NCBI GenBank assembly: GCA_963555755.3
Contig: OY820905.2
Span: 2,688,001-2,752,000, forward strand
DNA: 64,000 bases
From: Nitrospirales bacterium
GTDB taxonomy: Bacteria; Nitrospirota; Nitrospiria; Nitrospirales; UBA8639
Direction: 5' to 3'
Part shown: positions 10,854 to 41,244 of the stretch, in pieces
Position numbering within the stretch: position 1 is the first letter of the stretch
Layout: every line of letters begins with the position of its first letter
Notes under the pieces: generated by a model
Databases searched by the model: none
What the model was told of the DNA's origin: nothing
The model's input: only the letters and a program-made list of their open reading frames with translations
Position numbers and translations under genes: made by a program

Positions 10854-11776
10854 CTAAAAGCGAAAGGCTACCAGCAACGAAGGAGACAATACAAAGTTCG
10901 TGTAACGAAGTGTGCTAATGGTGGACTCATTCCGTGCGATGGTTCCTGTGAGATTCACCGTGACCCATTCTTGTGGTGTCCAATTAATGGCGGCTAACAG
11001 GCGGGCTCCATAGTCATGACGAGCTTCCAGCATGCTGGGTTCGAAGAAATCGTCGTAAGATTTGTAATCCACTTGCCCCTGAAAGAACACGACTATTGTT
11101 TGGGTTAAGGCGTGAACGAGGGTTCCTCCCCCAGCCAGGGCGGTGTTTGAAAAATCATCAGGATTAGCCCAGACACGAACCACGGAGAAGAAGGGATACA
11201 GCGCAGTTGTTTGGCTTAAGCCGACAGTCGTACTGATGTTCAATCCAAGATTATGAAGCGTGACCAAATGCGCATCGAAACTTCGATCGAAAATCGCACT
11301 GCCTTCGTAGCGTAGACTCATCACCCATCGATCAACTGGCCAACTCGCTCCAGCGCTCCCTGAAACACCACTAAAGTCGAGACCTTGGTTCCGATGATAG
11401 CGGGAAAGAAACCCGCTTCCACTCACAAACACATCCACGCGCTGAGCAATTCGAGTTTCTGCACGGACCAATAATGATTGGCACATAATCGTGTGTTTTC
11501 TGTTTGTCGCTGAGAAAGGCATTGTCAGTGAATTGATAGGAGGAATTGGAGTCGAGGGTGAACAGCTTGGGCCGGCGAAGCAACACGAGATCTTCCTCGC
11601 CAGTGAGAATTAATTCTTCTAGAGGAACAACAAGAATGGGACCCTCTTGAGCCTGTTGAGCCCGTTGCTCAATGGTTTGAGTTCCAAGTTCTTGCGCATG
11701 CGACTCAACTGAACAACCCATGCCCATCAAAGCGAGGAGGAGAGAAATGATCCAACGTCGTATGAAGTGTTGCGTC
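10854..11776 (-). pseudogene. Frameshifted outer-membrane beta-barrel protein gene
   Basis: Signal-bearing ORF 11371-11730 and amphipathic beta-strand ORF 10854-11522 ending in Phe lie in different frames (shift near 11480); 5' end abuts MITE F. Confidence 0.6.
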
Positions 11777-27005: not shown

Positions 27006-27025
27006 TTTCCTCTTTTCCTCCCTAT

Positions 27026-27060
27026 CCCCCTCAGGGGGGGAGAGGGTTGGGGTGAGGGGG
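27026..27060. repeat. Short REP-like GGGGAGAGGGTTGGGGTGAGGGG element
   Basis: Near-identical copy at about 28137-28177; related sequence near 8184-8212. Confidence 0.6.
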
Positions 27061-28091: not shown

Positions 28092-28244
28092 AGGTGACAC
28101 AGGGAATTATTGTTTAGGCAACTACAGACCTTAGCTCCCTCGCTCCCTCAGAGGGGGAGAGGGTTGGGGTGAGGGGCTCCCCTCATTCACAACAGCGATC
28201 TATCGTTAGCCGTTCCACACGCAACACCTACCTAGAAAATCTTC

Positions 28245-29165
28245 ATGTCGATCATTTTTCTTATTGCCTGCGTCATCATCCTCATCGGGGTGCTTGTCGC
28301 TATTTCCTCACCATTTTGGCGCAAAGATCCAACCACTCCAGACCTGATTAGTCAGGAAGCCGATGAAGATCAGGAACGCGCCGATCTCTCCGTCGAACGC
28401 GAGGTCTTACGCCAATCACTCCAAGAACTCGAAGTAGAACTCGCGCAGGGCCGATTAGAGCAAGTGGATCATGACCGATTAAAAGTCACCGATGAACATC
28501 GCTTGATAGGAGTCTTGGATCGACTCGAAGCCTTAGCCACATCCAGTACGCATGCAGCAGCAGAGCAACATACGAAGAAAACGGGGAAGGCTTGGGGGTC
28601 GGCGATTGCGGCCAGCCTCGTCGTGCTAGTGTTATCGGTCGGGATCTATAGCTTCCTGCAATGGCGGACCATTAACCGGCTCGTAGATGTCCAAGCCGAA
28701 ATGGGAACCCAAGCGCCAGATCCACGAGAAATGGTCGCCAGGTTAGAAGCCCGACTCAAAGAGAATCCCGATGATGTGCAAGGCCAAATGATGGCTGGTC
28801 GATCCTACCTGGCCTTAGACCGTGTCGATGATGCGAAGAAAGCCTATGAAAAGGTATTAGAACTGGACACCAGGAATCATGAAGCGCATTACAAATTGGG
28901 CATCATCATGATCGAAGAACGAAAATTCGACGACCCCAAAATCTTTAAAGCCGCTCTCGAACATTTCGATGTGGTGTTAGTCGACCTGCCGAATCAACCA
29001 GGGGTCAATTGGTACAAAGGATTGGCCTTGTGGTATTTGAAGCGCTACCGGGAAACCGAAGAGTACTGGGCCACCGCCCATACCAATCTCAAACCCGGTA
29101 GCCAAGACGCCGAATTCGTCAAACAAGCCCTCGTCAAACTGCGCAAAGGCGAAACGCCGTTTTAA
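28245..29165 (+). CDS. ccmI: CcmI/CycH-like TPR protein
   Basis: Two TM segments with LQELEVELAQG coil; RLEARLKENPDD and TPR repeats; last gene of the ccm operon. Confidence 0.8.
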   Translation: MSIIFLIACVIILIGVLVAISSPFWRKDPTTPDLISQEADEDQERADLSVEREVLRQSLQELEVELAQGRLEQVDHDRLKVTDEHRLIGVLDRLEALATSSTHAAAEQHTKKTGKAWGSAIAASLVVLVLSVGIYSFLQWRTINRLVDVQAEMGTQAPDPREMVARLEARLKENPDDVQGQMMAGRSYLALDRVDDAKKAYEKVLELDTRNHEAHYKLGIIMIEERKFDDPKIFKAALEHFDVVLVDLPNQPGVNWYKGLALWYLKRYRETEEYWATAHTNLKPGSQDAEFVKQALVKLRKGETPF

Positions 29166-29211
29166 CAAAGGTCTCCGCTCGAATTTCCACAAATTTTTTG
29201 ATCTAATATCA

Positions 29212-30393
29212 CTACTGTCCGGTTAAATTATCGAACAAATTCAATTGGTTGCACATGGCATAGGCCGCCTCATTGTAGCGCTTATCCGTAAGGAGTTGAT
29301 TCAATGGAATTTTCTCAAACAGGGTCAGGCTCAACACCTGTAAAATTGTGTAGAGGTCTGCCTTGAGATCGAGTCGTTTTTTGATGATTGCCACCAGCAC
29401 ATAGATCGAGATGGCGATCCAGATCTGGCTCTTGACGGCATTCTCGGAGGTGCCAAAAAACGATTTGATTCTGAGATGCTGTTTGATCCATTTAAAAAAG
29501 AGCTCCACTTGCCAGCGATAGCGATAGAGATCGGCGACGGTTTGTGCCGGCGTGGCAAAGTTGTTGGTGAGAAAGTTGAACGTCTTGTCGGTCTTGCTGT
29601 CGTGGTATTTGACTCGTCGCAATGGCTGAGGATAGGCGTGCTTGGTATTGGCTCCAGTCAGCACGATTGTCTGATCGCATCGCAACCCATGAGCTTTGTC
29701 GATGGCATGGGAGTATTGCCGTTTGTACTGCGTATTGCTCTTGGCTCGAATGACGAAAAATGTTCCCGATTGCGTGAGGGTGAACAGTCGCTCGAAGTCC
29801 AGATACCCTCGATCCATGATATAGAATGCTCCAGGCTCTGGCAGAAGGATATCGAGAACATTGACGTCGTGAAGCTTGCCGTCCGAGATATGGATAAAGG
29901 TCGGAATATTGCCGCGTAAATCGAGCAGGGTATGGAGTTTCACGGCGGACTTGGTGGAACGAAACCGTGCCCAGGGAAAAAGAGACAGGCAGAGATCGAT
30001 AGTGGAGGCATCGAGCGCGTACACGGTATGGTTGAGATCGAGCCCCAAGTCCTCTTTGGCATACAAGGGACGGGCCAGCTGGATCAAGGCCTGAGCGAAG
30101 TCGGCATAAATTCGCCAATCTCGTTGTTCGTTGGCCTCGGCCAGGGTGCTCCGGGAAATCGTGGTGCGAATCCCCATATGATAGAGTTTGGTTTGGTGAG
30201 CACGAAGACAGGCTTCGATATCGCGAAGACTTTCGCGATAGGTCAACTGTGCAAACGCCATGACCAGGTACTGATCGAGACAACGGAACTGCTTCACATA
30301 GCGTTCGCCTTGATAACGCTGAACAGATCGACGAAAGGTGTGCAGGGGTAAATGATCGGTGACTTGTGAAAAAATGAGTTGCCCCTCGTGCAT
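29212..30393 (-). CDS. IS4 family transposase (DUF4372 N-terminus)
   Basis: FAQLTYRESLRDIE; DASTI, MDRGY and YRYRWQVELFFKWIKQ (YREK-type) motifs. Confidence 0.93.
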   Translation of the reverse strand: MHEGQLIFSQVTDHLPLHTFRRSVQRYQGERYVKQFRCLDQYLVMAFAQLTYRESLRDIEACLRAHQTKLYHMGIRTTISRSTLAEANEQRDWRIYADFAQALIQLARPLYAKEDLGLDLNHTVYALDASTIDLCLSLFPWARFRSTKSAVKLHTLLDLRGNIPTFIHISDGKLHDVNVLDILLPEPGAFYIMDRGYLDFERLFTLTQSGTFFVIRAKSNTQYKRQYSHAIDKAHGLRCDQTIVLTGANTKHAYPQPLRRVKYHDSKTDKTFNFLTNNFATPAQTVADLYRYRWQVELFFKWIKQHLRIKSFFGTSENAVKSQIWIAISIYVLVAIIKKRLDLKADLYTILQVLSLTLFEKIPLNQLLTDKRYNEAAYAMCNQLNLFDNLTGQ

Positions 30394-30530
30394 GGTGTGC
30401 CCCCCAAATATCGGAGAGTGCCTCAGCACAGCATTTTTCACAATCGAAATCGGTAACACCCATTAAATCGTGATTTCCTTTGTTAGAACAGGGAGTTAGC
30501 GCGGGTGTTGGTCACTTTTACCGGACACTA

Positions 30531-31726
30531 GTGTAGTGTCCCTCAAATAACTGGACAAGTAGTTCTATTTAGAGTATGCTCGGGCATGGCAACTTCCTGC
30601 CAACTGTCGACATCCGAGCAGCAGCAACTTCAACAATGGGTTGCGGCCCAAGGAACACCTCAGCAGGTAGCCCTGCGCTGCCGGATCGTGCTCGCTGCCG
30701 CCGATGGACAGTCCGACTTAACCATTGCCCAGCAGTATTCGATCAACCGGAAAACGGTCATGTTGTGGCGCCAGCGATTTTCTGAACAGCGACTAGACGG
30801 TCTGTGGGAGATCGCTCCCGGACGCGGACGCAAGCCCACCTATCCCATCAAGAAGATCGCAGCGATTGTGGAGGCCACCTTGCAAACCAAGCCGGACGGC
30901 ATGACGCATTGGAGTTGCCGAACGCTGGCCAAGAGCCAGGGGGTGAGCAAGTCCACCATCAACACCATCTGGCAGGCTCACAATCTGAAGCCCCATCGGG
31001 TGGAAACCTTCAAGCTGTCCCGTGATCCGAAGTTCCTGGAGAAACTCACCGACGTCGTTGGACTCTACCTGAATCCGCCCCAACAGGCGATTGTGTTGTG
31101 TGTGGACGAGAAGAGTCAGATTCAGGCCTTAGATCGAACCCAACCCGGCTTGCCGCTTAAGAAGGGACGGTGTGGGACCATGACCCATGACTACAAGCGC
31201 CACGGCACAACCACCCTCTTCGCCGCTCTGGAGACGTTACAGGGCAAGGTGATCGGCCAATGTTATCAGCGGCATCGGCATCAGGAATTCCTCAAGTTTT
31301 TGCGGACCCTTAACAAGGCGTTCCCGGGCACCATGCCCCTGCATGTCATCATGGACAATTATGGAACGCATAAGCATAAAAATGTACGGGCTTGGTTCAC
31401 GCGCCACCCGCGCTTCGTACCGCACTTTGTCCCGACCAGCTCCAGTTGGCTGAACCTGGTCGAGCGATGGTTTGGTGAACTAAGCGCGAAGGCGATCCGC
31501 CGGGGAGCCTTTGGGAGTGTGCAAGATTTGAAGGCCTGCATCGAGGCGTTCCTGACGGCATGGAATAAGGCTCCGAAACCGTTCGTCTGGGCTGCGACAG
31601 TCGATTCGATTATTGACAAACTCTCACGTTGCCAACAAACGTTGGAGCAGATTCAGCCCGGCTGCACCAGCCCACGTAGGAGAAAACGAAAGAAATAACT
31701 GTCCAGTTATTTCCTGGACACTACAC
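30531..31726 (+). mobile_element. IS630-family element
   Basis: TIR GTGTAGTGTCC..AAATAACTGGACA; TA duplication at 30529-30530 and 31727-31728. Confidence 0.9.
30586..31698 (+). CDS. IS630 family transposase
   Basis: VDEKSQIQA, HDYKRHGTT, MDNYGTHK and SSWLNLVERWF motifs. Confidence 0.95.
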   Translation: MATSCQLSTSEQQQLQQWVAAQGTPQQVALRCRIVLAAADGQSDLTIAQQYSINRKTVMLWRQRFSEQRLDGLWEIAPGRGRKPTYPIKKIAAIVEATLQTKPDGMTHWSCRTLAKSQGVSKSTINTIWQAHNLKPHRVETFKLSRDPKFLEKLTDVVGLYLNPPQQAIVLCVDEKSQIQALDRTQPGLPLKKGRCGTMTHDYKRHGTTTLFAALETLQGKVIGQCYQRHRHQEFLKFLRTLNKAFPGTMPLHVIMDNYGTHKHKNVRAWFTRHPRFVPHFVPTSSSWLNLVERWFGELSAKAIRRGAFGSVQDLKACIEAFLTAWNKAPKPFVWAATVDSIIDKLSRCQQTLEQIQPGCTSPRRRKRKK

Positions 31727-31751
31727 TAGTGATCTAATATCTTTAAATTGA

Positions 31752-31880
31752 AATAAGTTGGAGAACTTGACCGGAAATCGTGCAGGAGAATATAGCATCC
31801 GAATCAATGATCAATGGCGAATCTGTTTCGCCTGGAAAGAAGATGGCCCCTACGATATGGAAATTACAGACTACCATTGA
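31752..31880 (+). pseudogene. higB: C-terminal half of HigB toxin
   Basis: Manual translation NKLENLTGNRAGEYSIRINDQWRICFAWKEDGPYDMEITDYH*; no start codon; directly upstream of higA. Confidence 0.85.
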
Positions 31881-31892
31881 GAAGGTGAGATC

Positions 31893-32204
31893 GTGAAAAA
31901 CAAAATGCGTCCCGTTCCACCAGGGGAAATCCTTGCTGAGGAGTTTTTGAAGCCGCTTGGGATGACGGCGAATGCCTTGGCCAAAGCTATTGGGGTCCCG
32001 GCAAACCGAATTACCGCTATTTTAAAAGGAGACCGGGGCATCACCGGAGACACAGCCGTACGGCTCGGAACTTTTTTTGATACTACCTCCGCGTTTTGGA
32101 TGAATCTTCAAACCAGCTATGAGTTAAGGCTTGCCGAAAAAGCCCTCCCACAAAGGGTTCGAAAAAATATAGAGGCGCAAAGGGAAACACTGGTTTCAGC
32201 GTAG
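31893..32204 (+). CDS. higA: HigA family antitoxin
   Basis: PPGEILAEEFLKPLG..ANRI..ITGDTAVRLG..FWMNLQ. Confidence 0.92.
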   Translation: MKNKMRPVPPGEILAEEFLKPLGMTANALAKAIGVPANRITAILKGDRGITGDTAVRLGTFFDTTSAFWMNLQTSYELRLAEKALPQRVRKNIEAQRETLVSA

Positions 32205-32264
32205 AGATCGCTCCAACTCTCTAACCCAAATCCTTCCAGGCCACATCCGATCCTTTCTATATTA

Positions 32265-32458
32265 GGGTGTTAGTCGCTCTTCCCAATCAGCCTGGCGTCA
32301 ATTGGTACAAAGGCTTGTCCTTTTGGTACTTGAAGCGATACTGCGAAACCGAAGAGTTCTGGGCCACCGCCCATAAAAATCTCAACCCCGGCAGCCAAGA
32401 CGCCGAATTCGTCAAACAAGCCCTCGCCAAACTCCGCGAAGGCGAGACACCGTTTTAA
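32265..32458 (+). repeat. Diverged copy 1 of the ccmI 3' end
   Basis: 63 codons, 9 aa differences from CcmI C-terminus, same ETPF* end. Confidence 0.9.
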
Positions 32459-32516
32459 TTCCCGGAAAGGGCCTCAAGGGCACAAATCCAATTCACTGTG
32501 CCCTCTCCCACAGACT

Positions 32517-32810
32517 CTACTGGTTTCCAAACTCATCAGGCCATTTCCGAGAGGTGTGCATGACAGCAAGAATGCGAATCTGTTTCCCTTTGATGTAATA
32601 GGGAAGGATATAGGGCAAACTCGGCACGATAAGTTCTCGAGTTTTGTCAACCCGACCAGGACGTCCTAAGTGTGGGTTATGGAGAAGGGAATTTCCTGAG
32701 GTTTCGATTTTGGTTAAGACTCCATAAGCAGCAGCAGGGTCATCCGCTGCGATGAATTGACCGATTTCTTTGAGATCCTGAATCGCCTCTTTCAACCATA
32801 GAACTTCCAT
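32517..32810 (-). CDS. RelE/ParE family toxin
   Basis: WLKEAIQDL..GRPGRVDKTRELIV..PYILPY..ILAVMHTSRKWP. Confidence 0.92.
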   Translation of the reverse strand: MEVLWLKEAIQDLKEIGQFIAADDPAAAYGVLTKIETSGNSLLHNPHLGRPGRVDKTRELIVPSLPYILPYYIKGKQIRILAVMHTSRKWPDEFGNQ

Positions 32811-33061
32811 CACCGCTTGAAGGACTCAACAACCTTATTCACCTCGGCAGTAGAAAAAAATTTCCCCCCTCTTTCAGCTTTTTTCAGGCGTTGACGGATC
32901 CGCTTTTCTTGCCAGTCATACACTTCTAAATAGTGTTCAAGGGCTTCATTAATGAGCCAATTCCTAGAGCGATCAATTCCTGCAGCGATTCGGTCCAATT
33001 TTTTTTGAGTTTCAACCGACATCCTCACGGTCACATTTCCAGTATTTTGAGGCATATGCAT
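32810..33061 (-). CDS. Ribbon-helix-helix (CopG-like) antitoxin
   Basis: VTVRM...LDRIA..DRSRNWLINEALEHYL; stop overlaps the toxin start. Confidence 0.88.
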   Translation of the reverse strand: MHMPQNTGNVTVRMSVETQKKLDRIAAGIDRSRNWLINEALEHYLEVYDWQEKRIRQRLKKAERGGKFFSTAEVNKVVESFKR

Positions 33062-33157
33062 TTACTCCGATTGCAAAAGATTACAGTTGCAGTATGGCAC
33101 GGATTTCTATGAATTTCTAGTCAGGAACCTCCAAAGCTAAGGAATAGGATATTTAGA

Positions 33158-33288
33158 GAAACCGAAGAGTACTGGGCCACCGCCCATACCAATCTCAAAC
33201 CCGGTAGCCAAGACGCCGAATTCGTCAAACAAGCCCTCGTCAAACTGCGTGAAGGGGAAACGAAATTTTTATTTGGGTCTCCGCTCGA
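33158..33288 (+). repeat. Copy 2 of the ccmI 3' end
   Basis: 33158-33249 is identical to 29052-29143 (92 bp); downstream GGTCTCCGCTCGA also shared. Confidence 0.92.
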
Positions 33289-33371
33289 TCTTCCCTAAAA
33301 AAATTGCCTAAAATCAATCCATTGTATGTTTTACCTAAATGGTAGAACACGCTATTAACTGAAGAAAACAA

Positions 33372-33453
33372 GGCCACCGCTTCCAAGTACTTCACACGCG
33401 GCAGCCAGGATGCTGAATTCGTCAAGCAAGCCCTCACGAAATTGCGTGAAGGC
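33372..33453 (+). repeat. Degenerate copy 3 of the ccmI 3' end
   Basis: Encodes GSQDAEFVKQALTKLREG. Confidence 0.8.
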
Positions 33454-33724
33454 AAAATCTCCTTCCAACGAAATACATCCCGAAACCCCAGGCAAGACTT
33501 CTTAGGCTCTGCGTCGAAAGAAAAAGTGAATTAAGCCAAATTAAACATAAGAAATATATTTCCCTGATAACGCTGGTATGTACTAGCCTCTACTCCAAAG
33601 TTTATGATACCCCCTCATGAGTACTGTTGACCTAGGCAGATAAAATCAAGTACCCCTGGTCATATACACTGTAAAACTTTGGGGTTTTATTAAATCTTTT
33701 ACCCATTCAAATTTGAGGGTAGCC

Positions 33725-34432
33725 ATGTTGAAAAATGTTAATTATTTCCTCCTCTTTTTTGTTTTCCTGACGGCAACCGGGTGTGCGCAGACATCTGTTC
33801 TGACCCGTGATGGGGAAATTATTGAAAAGGCCGCTGACGATAGAATTTTGCTAATGCCGCCTGATATTGAACTTTATGAAATGACTATGGGTGGAATGCT
33901 GGAACCAAAGGCAGATTGGACTGCCTCGGCACTTAAGAATGTGGCGGAAGCTCTTAAACAGGAATTAAAGGCCAATAATGACACCATGATCTCTTATAAG
34001 GAACCTGCCGACGGTTCGAATGAGTTTAAAGTTCATCAGCAACTGATCAAGCTCCATGAAGTTGTTGGTGCGTCTATTATGAAGCATCAATATCCAACTG
34101 TTTGGCAACTTCCAACCAAAGAGGATAACTTTGAATGGACCTTGGGACAAAGAACAACTCGACTAAAGGAAAAATACGGAGCTCAGTATGGGCTGTTTGT
34201 CTATATGAGGGATAGTTACGCCAGTGCTGGGCGAGTCAGCTTAATGATTGGAATGGCAGTTTTAGGGGTGGGAATTCCTCTCGGACAACAGGTAGGTTTC
34301 GCATCGTTGGTAGACCTCAAAACTGGAGATATCGTTTGGTTTAATCGGATGTTTTCTGAGTCCGGTGACTTAAGAGAGTTGAATTTAGCTAGAGACTCTG
34401 TTCAGAACCTACTTGATGATTTTCCTTTATGA
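33725..34432 (+). CDS. Hypothetical lipoprotein
   Basis: Lipobox ATGC; ASLVDLKTGDIVWFN strand; stop overlaps the next gene. Confidence 0.8.
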   Translation: MLKNVNYFLLFFVFLTATGCAQTSVLTRDGEIIEKAADDRILLMPPDIELYEMTMGGMLEPKADWTASALKNVAEALKQELKANNDTMISYKEPADGSNEFKVHQQLIKLHEVVGASIMKHQYPTVWQLPTKEDNFEWTLGQRTTRLKEKYGAQYGLFVYMRDSYASAGRVSLMIGMAVLGVGIPLGQQVGFASLVDLKTGDIVWFNRMFSESGDLRELNLARDSVQNLLDDFPL

Positions 34433-35604
34433 CATTCTTAAAAACCGTATTAATTTTGGTTATGTATGGAATGTGCATTTCCTGCGCCACTCCAGGGGGA
34501 GAACCTGGTGCCTTAGGAGACATCAAACCAGGAGAACGTCCTGAACTCCACACTGATGAAGCAGGATTATGGATGGCCTTCGACAACATGGAGGAAAAAT
34601 TGAAGACTTCGGGGCGTCGAATCACCGATCCTCAAGTCAATCACTATATCCGAAATATCGTGTGTAAACTTGCGGGCCCCCAATGCTCTGATATTCGAAT
34701 TTACATCATGCAAATCCCAGATTTTAATGCCAACATGGCTTCCAATGGGATGATGCAAGTGTGGACAGGACTGATTCTTAGAGCCCAAAACGAGGCCCAA
34801 CTAGCTTACATTCTAGGTCATGAGATTGGTCACTATTTACGCCGCCACTCGATTCAAGCATGGCGTGATACTCGAATGAAGTCCAATGTTTCCGTGTTAT
34901 TTCAAATCGCCACGGCGGCCGCTGGAGTGGGCTATGTCGGTCAACTGGGACACATTGCGCTCATAGGGAGTATTCAGGCCTTTTCACGCGATAATGAACG
35001 AGAAGCCGACGATGTGGGATTTGATTTGATTGCTCAAGCGGGCTACGACCCGAGAGAGGCTTCCCGTATTTGGGAATCCTTGATGAAGGAACATGCCGCA
35101 TCCGAAAAGGAGGCTCCTTCTATCTTTTTCGCTACACATCCCCCCACGGAAGAGCGCATTGAAACCCTCACGGCCAAGGCTCAAGCAGTGACAGCCCAGG
35201 GAGGACGTTTTTTTGTGGGCAAGAAAGAACTCGAAGCTGTGGTATTACCACTAAGAGCTAGCTTACTTCGTGATGAATTGCGGCGCGGGGAATTCAAAGA
35301 GACTCAAATACTTTTAAATAATCTAATGAAAAATGAAGTGGGGTTGGGTCAGATACATTTCTTTCAAGGGGAACTTCATCGGCTGAGAGCTGAACCAGAT
35401 GACCAGGAAAAGGCTGTTGTTGCTTATCAGAAGGCCTTAGAATTTCCCAATGCCCCACCAGAAGCCCACCGAGCCCTGGGGCTTTTCTACTTCAAGGCAG
35501 GGGAAAAACCCAAAGCCCGGGAAGCCTTGGAGCGGTACTTGGATTTAAAGCCTGACGGAGATGATCACGAGATGATTCGTGAGTACCTCCGACAATTAAA
35601 CTGA
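34429..35604 (+). CDS. M48 family metalloprotease lipoprotein with TPR C-terminus
   Basis: LGHEIGH, SRDNEREAD and FATHP motifs; TPR tail. Confidence 0.9.
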   Translation: MTFLKTVLILVMYGMCISCATPGGEPGALGDIKPGERPELHTDEAGLWMAFDNMEEKLKTSGRRITDPQVNHYIRNIVCKLAGPQCSDIRIYIMQIPDFNANMASNGMMQVWTGLILRAQNEAQLAYILGHEIGHYLRRHSIQAWRDTRMKSNVSVLFQIATAAAGVGYVGQLGHIALIGSIQAFSRDNEREADDVGFDLIAQAGYDPREASRIWESLMKEHAASEKEAPSIFFATHPPTEERIETLTAKAQAVTAQGGRFFVGKKELEAVVLPLRASLLRDELRRGEFKETQILLNNLMKNEVGLGQIHFFQGELHRLRAEPDDQEKAVVAYQKALEFPNAPPEAHRALGLFYFKAGEKPKAREALERYLDLKPDGDDHEMIREYLRQLN

Positions 35605-35611
35605 GGAAACC

Positions 35612-36193
35612 ATGAGAAAATTACTATTTATTTCTGGGCTGATAATGATGCTTACTGGGTGTGCCACGTATACCTTAGTAGAACCTAATCGGACTGAAAT
35701 CGGCGACCTCTATACAGTTGAACCCCAAATTCCTTGGAGTGAGTCAACCTCGGATAAAACCCAAATTTGGACAGTGGACGGTCCCGCTTTGCAAGAACTT
35801 CGCTTTGTCAATGGTATTGAAGATAGTGAGTCTCCATTTGTGGGCTTACTAGAAGAAGAAAAGAGTCCAAAATTTAGAAAGGGCATGACGTCTTTAGAAA
35901 TTAAGGACCTGGTAGTTGATGGGCTCTCCGTCATGGGCGCCTACAAAATTAAAATGAAAAAGGTTAAGCCATTTCAGTTTGGGGCACATGAGGGTTTTCG
36001 AATGGAATTGGATTATGTCACAGAGGATGGACTTGAAAAATCGGGATTGGTGGTTGGCTCAGTCATTAAAGAAAAATTGTACGTTATCGCGTATACCGGG
36101 GCACGGGCACATTATTTTGCCAAGCATAAAGATCACGCTGAAAAAATAATTAATTCGATTCAAATGAAAGATAGTAAACCTTCTGCGGAATAG
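35612..36193 (+). CDS. Hypothetical lipoprotein
   Basis: Lipobox LTGC; RBS GAGG; WTVDG..L..L motif. Confidence 0.8.
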   Translation: MRKLLFISGLIMMLTGCATYTLVEPNRTEIGDLYTVEPQIPWSESTSDKTQIWTVDGPALQELRFVNGIEDSESPFVGLLEEEKSPKFRKGMTSLEIKDLVVDGLSVMGAYKIKMKKVKPFQFGAHEGFRMELDYVTEDGLEKSGLVVGSVIKEKLYVIAYTGARAHYFAKHKDHAEKIINSIQMKDSKPSAE

Positions 36194-36402: not shown

Positions 36403-36420
36403 TTGGTGCCGAAGCCGGGA
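36403..36420 (-). repeat. att-like duplication of the tRNA-Leu 3' end
   Basis: TTGGTGCCGAAGCCGGGA is identical to 41160-41177. Confidence 0.8.
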
Positions 36421-37190: not shown

Positions 37191-38639
37191 CTACTCAGGT
37201 GTGATGATCTTTGTAGTGAATTGTGCAGGCATAAAGGGGTGGCCGATCATGGCTTGTGAAATGGCTTGCAGCATGTTGCCGCCCTGCTTTCTCGCGGTAG
37301 AAAGGTAGCTTCGTATGCGGGCGAACTGCCTCGCGCCTTGAAGCGTTCGAAAACACCCGGATATTTTGAGGCGGAGCTTGATCATGCGGATATCCTGTTC
37401 TGCCAGATTATTAGTGAAGGGAACCTGTCTGTCATGGAGGAACGCGAGCACGGAGGCTTCATGCTCGCCAAGACGGGTGAGGAGATTTTGGGCCTTGGTC
37501 TTTTTGGGCCGGCCTCGTGACTTTTTCTGTGGCGGTGCCGGAAGGGGGTTGGCCTGCCATCCGAGGGTGAGAAGATCCCTGTATTGTTTCAGCCAGGGGG
37601 TTTTCTGTTCTTCCGTTAACTGTGCGAGTTGCTTGCTGACAAACACGTTCATCGTCAGCAACAGGTCAAACATGTGTTTGGCCCATGGTTGTTCGTGCTG
37701 CTCGAACAGGCACGTGAGTTCCCGCAAATGATGGGCGTTACAGAGGCCGTGGGCACAGTCATAGGAGAGATAGGGTTTCCAGAAATCGTGGATCAGGCGG
37801 CCAGCAAAATCCGGGAGGATCTGGAACTGCTCGATCGCCTCTCTTCCCCGTTTGGCGTGCACACCGTAAAAGGTCAACGTGGCCGTGCTGGCACTGTGGA
37901 GCCAGTGGAGCGTCCCGGCCGTGCGGACGCCGCTTTCATCGGCATGGAGGATGGGACTCTTGCCGAGCGCTTCTTTGACCGCAGTCTCGAACGGCGCGAG
38001 GTGCTCATAACTTCGGCGGGAGGCCTCGTCAATGGTGGCGTCGCTGACCGAGGCGCCATACAGATCAGCCATCATCTGGCTGACACGGCGTAAGGGGATC
38101 AACTGTTGGTTCTGGAGGTAGACCAGGAGGCTGCGAAATCTGGGACCGTACTGTGCCGGCGCAGGCAGGTCATCAGGAAATGACGCCGTGACCGAGCGGC
38201 CGCATTGGGGGCAGGTTTTGATTGCTCCCCGATATTCGGTGACGTCGAGTTTTGGCTCCGGCAGTTCAAAGAGCTGCCGGCGTTCATAGCCGGTGACCGT
38301 CTCGTTGGTGAGGTCGGCATGGCAGGAACAGGAGTGAACAGGCAGGTGGACCAGGTGGTCTGGGGTTTCCACCTGTTTTAACGTCTGGCCGGCATGTCCC
38401 TGTTGGCCGCCCGGCTTTTTCCCGGAAGGTATGCGCAGGCTCTTGGTTCGGGGCTTGGCCGGTCCATCGGACGAGGGCGGTTTGCTGCTGTTGCGACTGT
38501 GTTGGTCGAGCCGCTGTGCCAGTTCGGTGACATGCGTGGTCAGCGCCTGCCCCTGTTCCTGCAGCGCCAGGATCAGTTCGACGAGCGCCTCGGGGTTGCT
38601 CTTGGCCAGGATGAGGAGTGCGTCGCGGGTGAAGGTCAT
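37191..38639 (-). CDS. IS66 family transposase (TnpC-like)
   Basis: SRNSSKPPSSD, zinc ribbon, LHADES, LCNAHHLREL and PFTNNLAEQDIR motifs. Confidence 0.93.
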   Translation of the reverse strand: MTFTRDALLILAKSNPEALVELILALQEQGQALTTHVTELAQRLDQHSRNSSKPPSSDGPAKPRTKSLRIPSGKKPGGQQGHAGQTLKQVETPDHLVHLPVHSCSCHADLTNETVTGYERRQLFELPEPKLDVTEYRGAIKTCPQCGRSVTASFPDDLPAPAQYGPRFRSLLVYLQNQQLIPLRRVSQMMADLYGASVSDATIDEASRRSYEHLAPFETAVKEALGKSPILHADESGVRTAGTLHWLHSASTATLTFYGVHAKRGREAIEQFQILPDFAGRLIHDFWKPYLSYDCAHGLCNAHHLRELTCLFEQHEQPWAKHMFDLLLTMNVFVSKQLAQLTEEQKTPWLKQYRDLLTLGWQANPLPAPPQKKSRGRPKKTKAQNLLTRLGEHEASVLAFLHDRQVPFTNNLAEQDIRMIKLRLKISGCFRTLQGARQFARIRSYLSTARKQGGNMLQAISQAMIGHPFMPAQFTTKIITPE

Positions 38640-39523
38640 GGCTTGCTCCGGCAGAGGGCCTGTCGGAAGTGGCGGATGAGGGGATAGAGATAAATTGCCT
38701 TCACCGGCACGCGCAGAGCCTTGTCACGGTCCTGCCGGGACCGGCCTTTGGTCTGCCCGACATAGAGCCAGTTCGCGGCCTGATAGCAGATACCTTTGAA
38801 GCGGTCTCGCTCCACAAAGGTCTCCACCAAGTGGACGGGATGGCCGTATTTCTCGATCCAGTCCTGCCGGAGACGTCTCATGACCCGGCCCAGGAGATGG
38901 CTGGCCAGATGCGGCACACGCACCCAGGGCAGGATGAGAAAGCGGGTATTGTTGGTCATGAAGTTGAGGTTGGCGGCTCGGGTGTCCGGCTCCCAGCCGA
39001 TAAAGGTGTCGCGCGGAGTGGTTTTCCAGGCGGCGGAACCGAAGAGGAGGCAGGCCAGATCCTGCCCGGAGCGATCCCGCACCAGGTACTTGAGATGTTC
39101 ACCGACCGTTCGGGTGAACCCGAGGTAGTGATGGTGGCTCAGGTAATATCCCACACAACTGGCTTCGTAGGAATGTGAGGTTGGAATATGAATGGACAGG
39201 GGCGTCAGGGTCTTGAGAGCTGCGTCGATGTGCGGGGCTTCGGGAGGCATAAACCCCTTTCGGAAAGGGGGGAAGATGTTGCGTCGAGAGGCGACACGAA
39301 TCGGGGGCAGCTTCAGGAGCCCGCGATGTTCGAGTTTGTCGATCATGCTGCGGGCGGCAAAGGTTTTCAGTTGTCCGGACGGGGTCTGCCAGCCCCAGTG
39401 CCGACAAATATGCTGGGTTATTTTATGGCGGCTCCAGTCAGGGTGCCGGCAAACCAGATGGCGTAACCAGCACAGATCAGATTGGGGGAGGCGACGACCT
39501 TGACATGTAATCGCTTCATTCAT
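38636..39523 (-). CDS. DUF4338 (DruA-like) protein
   Basis: HHYLG, RDTFIGW, NNTRFLILPWV..LASHLL, ETFV and GICYQAANW..VGQTKGR motifs. Confidence 0.85.
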   Translation of the reverse strand: MNEAITCQGRRLPQSDLCWLRHLVCRHPDWSRHKITQHICRHWGWQTPSGQLKTFAARSMIDKLEHRGLLKLPPIRVASRRNIFPPFRKGFMPPEAPHIDAALKTLTPLSIHIPTSHSYEASCVGYYLSHHHYLGFTRTVGEHLKYLVRDRSGQDLACLLFGSAAWKTTPRDTFIGWEPDTRAANLNFMTNNTRFLILPWVRVPHLASHLLGRVMRRLRQDWIEKYGHPVHLVETFVERDRFKGICYQAANWLYVGQTKGRSRQDRDKALRVPVKAIYLYPLIRHFRQALCRSKP

Positions 39524-40494: not shown

Positions 40495-41160
40495 AATTAA
40501 TAGGGAACAGGAAATTCAAACGCTATTTTAGGTCAATCGGAAACGTACCGAAGGGGCCGCACGGTGTCAATTACAAAATGAGAGGTTTCGGCGGTGGGGC
40601 TTTGTTGCTGGCGAGGTCTATCTACTTGTCAATAATTTGGAGGCAGACAAACGAAAGGCCCACACGGTTACCAGCCGGTAAGCCTTTCCAAAAGGAGAAT
40701 GCACCATTAGGTTTACTATCTCATGGAACGCGGAATCGGGCTAAACGTCGTTTGGAATATGGCCGATGAACAATCACCTTCCCTATAGTCTTTACTGTGG
40801 GCCTATCAAAACATTTCCAAAATCGAACCAGAAATTTTACGAGGACTCCGTACGCCCTGGACTGATTGCTGATTTTAACCCCCACCCCCCTATCCTTGCA
40901 TGCCCTATAGGATTAACTTGTTTATTGACTATGGCACCCCTTCCCTTCACATTCCTCGCCCTATCTCCTCCTTTCCTGAGCATGTAAATAAGCTGACTGC
41001 CATCCTAGAAATGGTACACATCGAACTATGAATCTCACAGGAACAGCCAGAGGTAGTGCGGTATATAAAAGCGGAAAAAGGAAAGGCGGACGGCCATTTT
41101 ACGGCCCACGGAGATTGATACAAACGAATCCCTTAAATATATCAATCACATAAAGAAACT

Positions 41161-41244
41161 TGGTGCCGAAGCCGGGACTTGAACCCGGACGGGTTTCCCC
41201 ACACGCCCCTCAAACGTGCGCGTCTGCCATTCCGCCACTTCGGC
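41161..41244 (-). tRNA. tRNA-Leu(GAG)
   Basis: GCCGAAG/CTTCGGC acceptor stem, anticodon loop TTGAGGG, long variable arm, TTCAAGT T-loop, encoded CCA. Confidence 0.95.

Follow-up and report, generated by a model that had tools for sequence, protein, structure and literature searches.

How does a core gene come to be followed by several copies of its own end, with toxin–antitoxin (TA) pairs lodged between them? The question is raised by ccmI in a 64,000-nucleotide stretch of a Nitrospirales bacterium genome (contig OY820905.2, positions 2,688,001–2,752,000; hereafter the window, to which coordinates refer unless another sequence is named). From comparison with the rest of the 4.6-Mb genome, with relatives and with metagenomic loci, we consider it somewhat probable that the array consists of cassettes, each made of a TA pair and a ccmI tail, that were inserted serially by homologous recombination with the DNA of relatives and not by an integrase. 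Insertion of this kind, integrase-free and with a long target duplication, is known for restriction–modification (RM) genes; here the cargo is TA pairs, likely spread by homologous recombination.

The ccmI gene and the copies of its 3′ end

The live ccmI gene (28245–29165, plus strand; TIGR03142 at 31.7 bits against a cut-off of 29.3, TPR domains and ccm synteny) closes the cytochrome c maturation operon, downstream of ccmF, dsbE and ccmH-type genes, and has homologues in Nitrospiraceae and Nitrospirales. Its final ~230 bp are the duplicated target. Three plus-strand copies, all encoding one and the same conserved ccmI end, follow the gene, and no ccmI match beyond these three was found elsewhere in the genome. 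Copy 1 (32224–32458) consists of a well-aligned part (32266–32458), identical to live ccmI at 169 of 193 positions (88%), and a degraded 5′ extension from ~32224. Counted by codon, it carries 12 synonymous and 9 non-synonymous changes, in agreement with the sequence-only reading of the window, which had noted nine amino-acid changes and about a dozen synonymous ones. Copy 2 (33158–33294) has lost the stop codon; it contains the exact 92-bp run that the same reading had pointed out (33158–33249, equal to 29052–29143), and its similarity extends ~23 bp beyond the stop (124/137 overall). Copy 3 (33357–33457; 75% identity) is the most decayed; the final copy in the nearest relative, G006 (ccmI 92–94%), has the same tail. 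The array is a stack of variable-length gene-end fragments behind an intact gene, with copies of 103–235 bp and inserts of 0.1–3.1 kb. A scan for promoters and terminators gave counts not above those in shuffled sequence (4 versus 4.6 and 6 versus 5.6). Inside the ccm operon, a 42-bp intergenic repeat (90%) occurs at 27018–27059 and 28135–28176.

The cargo ahead of copy 1 is a higBA cassette. Its start (29166–29209, plus strand), which includes the left target duplication of an IS4-family element (29201–29209), matches what follows ccmI in the metagenomic loci L088–L091 and L101, with 95.6% identity across 45 bp. The IS4 element itself (29210–31731, minus strand; NF033592) has a 9-bp target duplication, ATCTAATAT, and two further 100% copies in the genome. 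Nested within its terminal repeat is an IS630-family element (30531–31726, plus strand; NF033545), whose ends were read and show an inverted repeat and a TA-dinucleotide target duplication. Behind this pair lie a 3′ remnant of higB (31750–31880, plus strand; PF05015 match, 91.5% to the intact higB of L089), which lost ~183 bp of the 5′ part of the gene through a deletion separate from the IS insertion, and the higA antitoxin gene (31893–32204, plus strand; TIGR02607 above cut-off). In metagenomic relatives the higBA cassette is IS-free with higB intact, and the IS pair is therefore one late insertion, unrelated to cassette capture. The order and numbers previously given for the array stand, whereas the IS pair has to be removed from the cassette cargo. 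Between copies 1 and 2 lie a ParE/RelE-type toxin gene (32517–32813, minus strand; PF05016 above cut-off) and a ribbon-helix-helix (RHH) antitoxin gene (32810–33061, minus strand; PF01402, with NF048017 under cut-off).

The ccmI site in relatives and gene ends across the genome

The DNA downstream of ccmI differs widely among relatives. Of 46 loci from relatives whose sequence extends 2 kb or more downstream, 6 have a ccmI-end copy, with differing cargo and differing left ends (left out of this count were L087, where the apparent copy is a mis-set gene end, L084, where the gene end is absent, and L052, with less than 2 kb downstream). This varying content bears out the earlier proposal that the ccmI 3′ end is a recurrent capture site. 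Left ends across loci fall at −335, −231, −113, −60, −41, −38 and −28, and no common motif was seen when the junction sequences were inspected by eye. In G006 the order is parE/RHH (95% identical), a decayed copy, an AbrB/MazE-type antitoxin with a PIN (vapC) toxin, higA, a copy and a copy-3-like tail; the cassette order of the window, higBA before parE/RHH, is reversed there. Among the metagenomic loci, 5 of 15 have ccmI, intact higBA and a copy; L096 has an abrB/vapC pair with higA, a copy and then a start like that of the parE cassette, and L098 has parE/RHH in first place behind ccmI. The left junction of copy 1 (about −231) recurs in the higA cassettes of relatives, a single junction being found in the window, G006, L088–L091, L096 and L101. 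In locus L068 (~10920–11350), the space from ccmI to its copy of 66 bp is taken up by tandem 57-bp repeats.

ccmI is one of ~15 TA-bearing gene ends in this genome, a pattern absent from the sequence-only reading. Among 3132 open reading frames (ORFs) of at least 450 bp, 27 are single-copy with the 3′ end repeated downstream on the same strand; the 3′ end is repeated upstream in 2 and the 5′ part upstream in 13. At 21 of the 27 sites, which were examined, a TA-type family scored above the Pfam cut-off in 13 and more weakly in 2, and the cargo was of another kind in 6. Among the targets are metG, der, cobW and bioB (biotin synthase), together with genes for citrate synthase, a histidine kinase, an SPFH-domain protein and an FtsX permease. 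Cargo families at the sites other than ccmI are PIN, HepT/NTase, DUF433/DUF5615 and DUF4160/DUF2442, the last two of which we take to be TA pairs. The toxins here are presumably of RNase and gyrase type and hence would supply no DNA breaks of the restriction type. Most cargo measures 0.7–2 kb and consists solely of a TA pair, and the gene-end repeats vary from 30 to 900 bp.

The association was also counted from the toxin side, with 84 toxin genes of seven families and gene-end copies sought by local sequence comparison around each. Seventeen of the 84 have a gene 3′ end on one side and its copy on the other, compared with 6 of 500 random sites (Fisher p = 5 × 10⁻¹¹); a clean count, which drops one 2.2-kb segmental duplication and counts ccmI twice, gives 16 toxin genes at 15 sites (p = 3 × 10⁻¹⁰). 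The mirror arrangement at 5′ ends was found for 2 of the 84.

Relatives differ at these other sites as well. At der, the site is empty in G002 and G003, and in G006 both the vapC and the length of the copy differ; at bioB, G003 has different cargo and again a different copy length. The crossover position at a single target varies accordingly (ccmI −28 to −335; bioB −279 versus −221; der −122 versus ~−141). At ftsX, a new cassette with its copy stands in G003 ahead of a FitA/PIN pair that this genome has as well. Such stacking at the front is what the sequence-only reading had envisaged at ccmI, with incoming DNA pushing older ends downstream.

Several related arrangements were seen in passing. 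A PIN pair lies between 197-bp repeats of the 5′ start of the downstream gene at G000:C1:60333–61802 in this genome (G000), a mirror-image form. In G003 (L132, 4056–5625) the gene that follows gltA in G000 has its 3′ end duplicated (254 bp, 82%) around a 284-amino-acid non-TA gene. Gene-end duplications surround PIN pairs at a transaldolase/PGI fusion in G002 (L158, 3441–5111) and at a gene of unknown function in G006 (L173, 357–1747). A G+C-rich foldable repeat of 150–200 bp, abundant in the genus, has ~105 copies in this genome (for example G000:C1:3441160–3441400, in L114); 21 of the 84 TA toxin genes lie within ~1.2 kb of it, compared with 4.3% of random sites, and it might serve TA pairs as another type of homology arm or target.

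Origin of the copies and a proposed route of insertion

The copies differ mostly at silent sites. Of the 24 differences between copy 1 and live ccmI, 16 match states found in 16 live orthologues (mean 4.2 and maximum 12 in 5000 random draws), and 4 of its 9 amino-acid changes are present in live orthologues, so that, judged by sequence, copy 1 looks like a once-working allele. In a tree it lies outside the 99/98 clade that holds live ccmI. Across 34 copies at 26 hand-picked genes, pS was 0.297 and pN 0.055 (pN/pS 0.18), and the mrpD copy has 20 silent and no replacement changes. The six copies behind higA were rejected as one clade (approximately unbiased (AU) test, p = 0.0003; 6 of 23 rows constrained, 232 columns) despite the shared higA junction, as would follow if every insertion left the recipient's own gene end behind it. 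The identities of higA and ccmI likewise disagree: between the window and G006 they are 83% and 94%, and between L096 and the others 84–86% and 78–79%. At the position of copy 2, G006 has a decayed counterpart, and the perfect identity of copy 2 points to a recent exchange with the live gene.

We suggest that a cassette would be born when a donor gene end with a TA pair behind it recombines within the recipient's gene and joins illegitimately further along that gene, stranding the recipient's old gene end behind the cargo; one homologous and one illegitimate joint would explain the variable left ends. The cassette could then spread by its two arms, both of which match one conserved gene end. 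A double crossover would add it directly behind a relative's live gene and leave the existing downstream DNA in place, old ends and cassettes moving downstream. Because front entry would strand the host's end, a fixed junction with varying arms, an excess of silent changes, stacking and reordering would all follow. Loss and reordering may proceed through the same repeats, and the gene would stay whole only where the repeat includes the gene's end. TA cargo is likely over-represented because addiction resists loop-out, by which repeat-flanked DNA would otherwise be lost. More tentatively, we propose that a TA pair with a core-gene tail could be a minimal self-targeting mobile unit, which carries a portable arm, always enters at the front and builds integron-like arrays without a recombinase, and that this might be a main route for solitary chromosomal TA pairs in Nitrospirales, perhaps far beyond.

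Several observations weigh against serial insertion from relatives. G003, G026 and G028 carry cargo downstream of ccmI that does not resemble TA pairs, and the acs, carB and rapA sites have other cargo as well. Arms of this kind are missing from 67 of the 84 TA toxin genes, and in five relatives only 5 of 46 PIN matches have them (3 by a strict filter), so the pattern is rarer or more decayed there. The birth step is one that we infer, and no donor context suited to a microhomology check was found. The presence of comEC and dprA says little, since they are common in control genomes (10 and 11 of 14, respectively). A clade of copy 1 with the live ccmI end is not rejected (p = 0.051), and the states that copy 1 shares with orthologues are mostly ancestral, so that it may be an old native end and not a foreign one. 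Gene conversion between the live gene and a copy could likewise break up the clade of higA-associated copies, as the 92-bp identity of copy 2 shows that such exchange occurs. The reversed cassette order could arise by duplication and deletion within a single lineage.

A circular route, which we regard as unlikely but the best placed of the alternatives, would yield an identical product: two ccmI-end repeats recombine and release the cassette between them, and a single crossover then returns it to live ccmI, either in the cell of origin or, following transfer, elsewhere. It accounts for front-stacking and for the reversed order, copy 2 supplies 92 identical bases for it, and such a route has been proposed for rhs tips (Jackson 2009, PMC2935791). 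A non-replicating 1-kb circle, however, needs a transfer route, and none was found. Neither a circle nor an excision joint was seen, in data unable to show one: the joint 29143–33250, expected from the ~4.1-kb loop-out suggested earlier, is unlisted in the short-read contigs of four near-identical runs, which are uninformative for a 92-bp identical repeat. That no recombination intermediate was seen weighs against serial insertion too. Contig C2 was considered as an excised cassette circle and rejected; it is an IS-led duplicate, 14 kb long and 99.98% identical to C1 4,141,231–4,153,174, and is preceded by a 2.2-kb multi-copy element.

It is improbable that the sites are decayed islands, once mobilized by integrases that targeted gene 3′ ends and were later lost. 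The genome has 16 tyrosine recombinase matches, and att-like repeats of tRNA-Leu occur both here (18 bp) and in G003 (80 bp; both described below). Yet no integrase or resolvase (PF00589 or PF00239) lies less than 15.7 kb from any of the 21 sites (21/21). A profile search of the genome placed the integrase nearest to ccmI 61 kb away, in keeping with the earlier remark that none is visible at the array. No integron integrase lies beside the array, and no palindromic separators between cassettes were found among the inverted repeats of the window, where no attC-model search was made. Moreover, the left ends at ccmI vary, unlike a fixed att site, and the cargo is mostly 0.7–2 kb with a TA pair alone.

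Slightly less probable still is local self-duplication of gene ends, followed by insertion of TA pairs and by replacement of the live gene with relatives' alleles. The identity of copy 2 to the live gene would fit, the copies of G006 and G003 are placed in the tree near live genes that are their own or closely related, and frequent allele import would raise silent differences. Neutral decay, on the other hand, should give a pN/pS of ~0.5 or more, compared with the 0.18 observed. Self-duplication also leaves unexplained the shared left junction that travels with higA across lineages and the asymmetry between 3′ and 5′ ends.

The ccmI array is real, and an assembly artefact is very improbable: copies 1 and 3 are only 88% and 75% identical to the gene, the contigs of the four near-identical runs span the cassettes without differences, and like units occur in other genomes and sediments. 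In favour of an artefact, each of these runs, which come from two studies, has roughly half the contig depth behind copy 2 that it has in front (19 versus 31, 28 versus 58, 16 versus 34 and 68 versus 152; window 33220–34500), a drop that could stem from low-GC bias or a second allele there.

Known systems and the surrounding region

Insertion with long target duplication has been described for RM genes (Furuta, Abe and Kobayashi 2010, PMC2853133; Nobusato 2000 as cited there). As in that class, the cargo is of addiction type and smaller than 20 kb, the target duplication exceeds 30 bp, and the direct repeats are long, variable and unique in the genome. The insert likewise carries no mobility gene (the IS pair being secondary here), the repeats often span the stop codon, with the targeted gene kept whole, and relatives have empty sites. 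Furuta et al. suggest DNA breakage by restriction enzymes as the cause. Our case differs in that the cargo is type II TA pairs and no RM genes, that ~15 sites occur in one genome with stacking and reordering at one of them (supplementary figures of that article may hold stacked cases), and that the repeats represent coding alleles whose divergence is mostly silent. Since size, uniqueness and empty sites agree and the RM cargo does not, the units work like the long-target-duplication class without belonging to it as it is defined.

Variable-length gene-end fragments stacked downstream are also known from rhs (PMC2935791) and tpsA/tpsC (PMC3848433), where a new unit arrives at the front by homologous recombination and circle or double-crossover models have been offered. 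There, the protein's own variable toxic tip is swapped, whereas here, at many core genes unrelated to each other, the end is conserved and provides only an arm for downstream genes with no relation to it. In additive flexible genomic islands at tRNA genes (PMC7771536, PMC5217437), cassettes similarly build up where a conserved gene ends, with a direct repeat of that end left over, but the target is a tRNA and site-directed recombination is invoked; here the targets are protein-coding ends with repeats of 30–900 bp. Super-integrons (PMC2654758) share cassette arrays with TA pairs, front insertion and reordering, and their TA pairs may resist deletion; in our case there is no nearby integrase, no attC-like palindromes were seen and the separators are copies of coding sequence. 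The TA stabilization model is set out in the same source, with the warning that not all chromosomal TA pairs obey it. In the open-access literature we saw no article describing TA pairs set between duplicated gene ends, and the portion of PMC7285500 used here does not describe them.

Many chromosomes carry dozens of TA pairs without an adjoining phage, plasmid or transposase. About one fifth of the TA toxin genes examined here bear a readable scar that points to one arrival route. If the proposed route is correct, insertion with long target duplication would be widened beyond restriction enzymes, and addiction with host recombination would suffice, DNA breaks made by the cargo being unneeded. 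Such spare gene tails also account for small spurious ORFs, and for breaks in contigs, downstream of core genes.

The array forms the left edge of a 12-kb variable region, whose right boundary is a tRNA-Leu gene (41161–41244, minus strand). An 18-bp copy of the 3′ end of this tRNA lies at 36403–36420 (paired with 41160–41177) and marks off an insert of 4.7 kb; in G003 the tRNA-Leu copy is 80 bp long and lies at a distance of 840 bp. In G001, ccmI lies 234 bp from tRNA-Leu without a ccmI-end copy, and the spacer is unalignable to the tail of the window; given this spacing, compared with 12 kb here, the ccmI region grows from the tRNA side too. Directly behind the array is a three-gene low-GC operon (33713–36193, plus strand), with two genes of unknown family and one peptidase M48-TPR gene. 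At 37191–39523 an IS66-type transposase gene lies behind a DruA/DUF4338-like gene, and the same pairing is also present in this genome at G000:C1 1003735–1006067.

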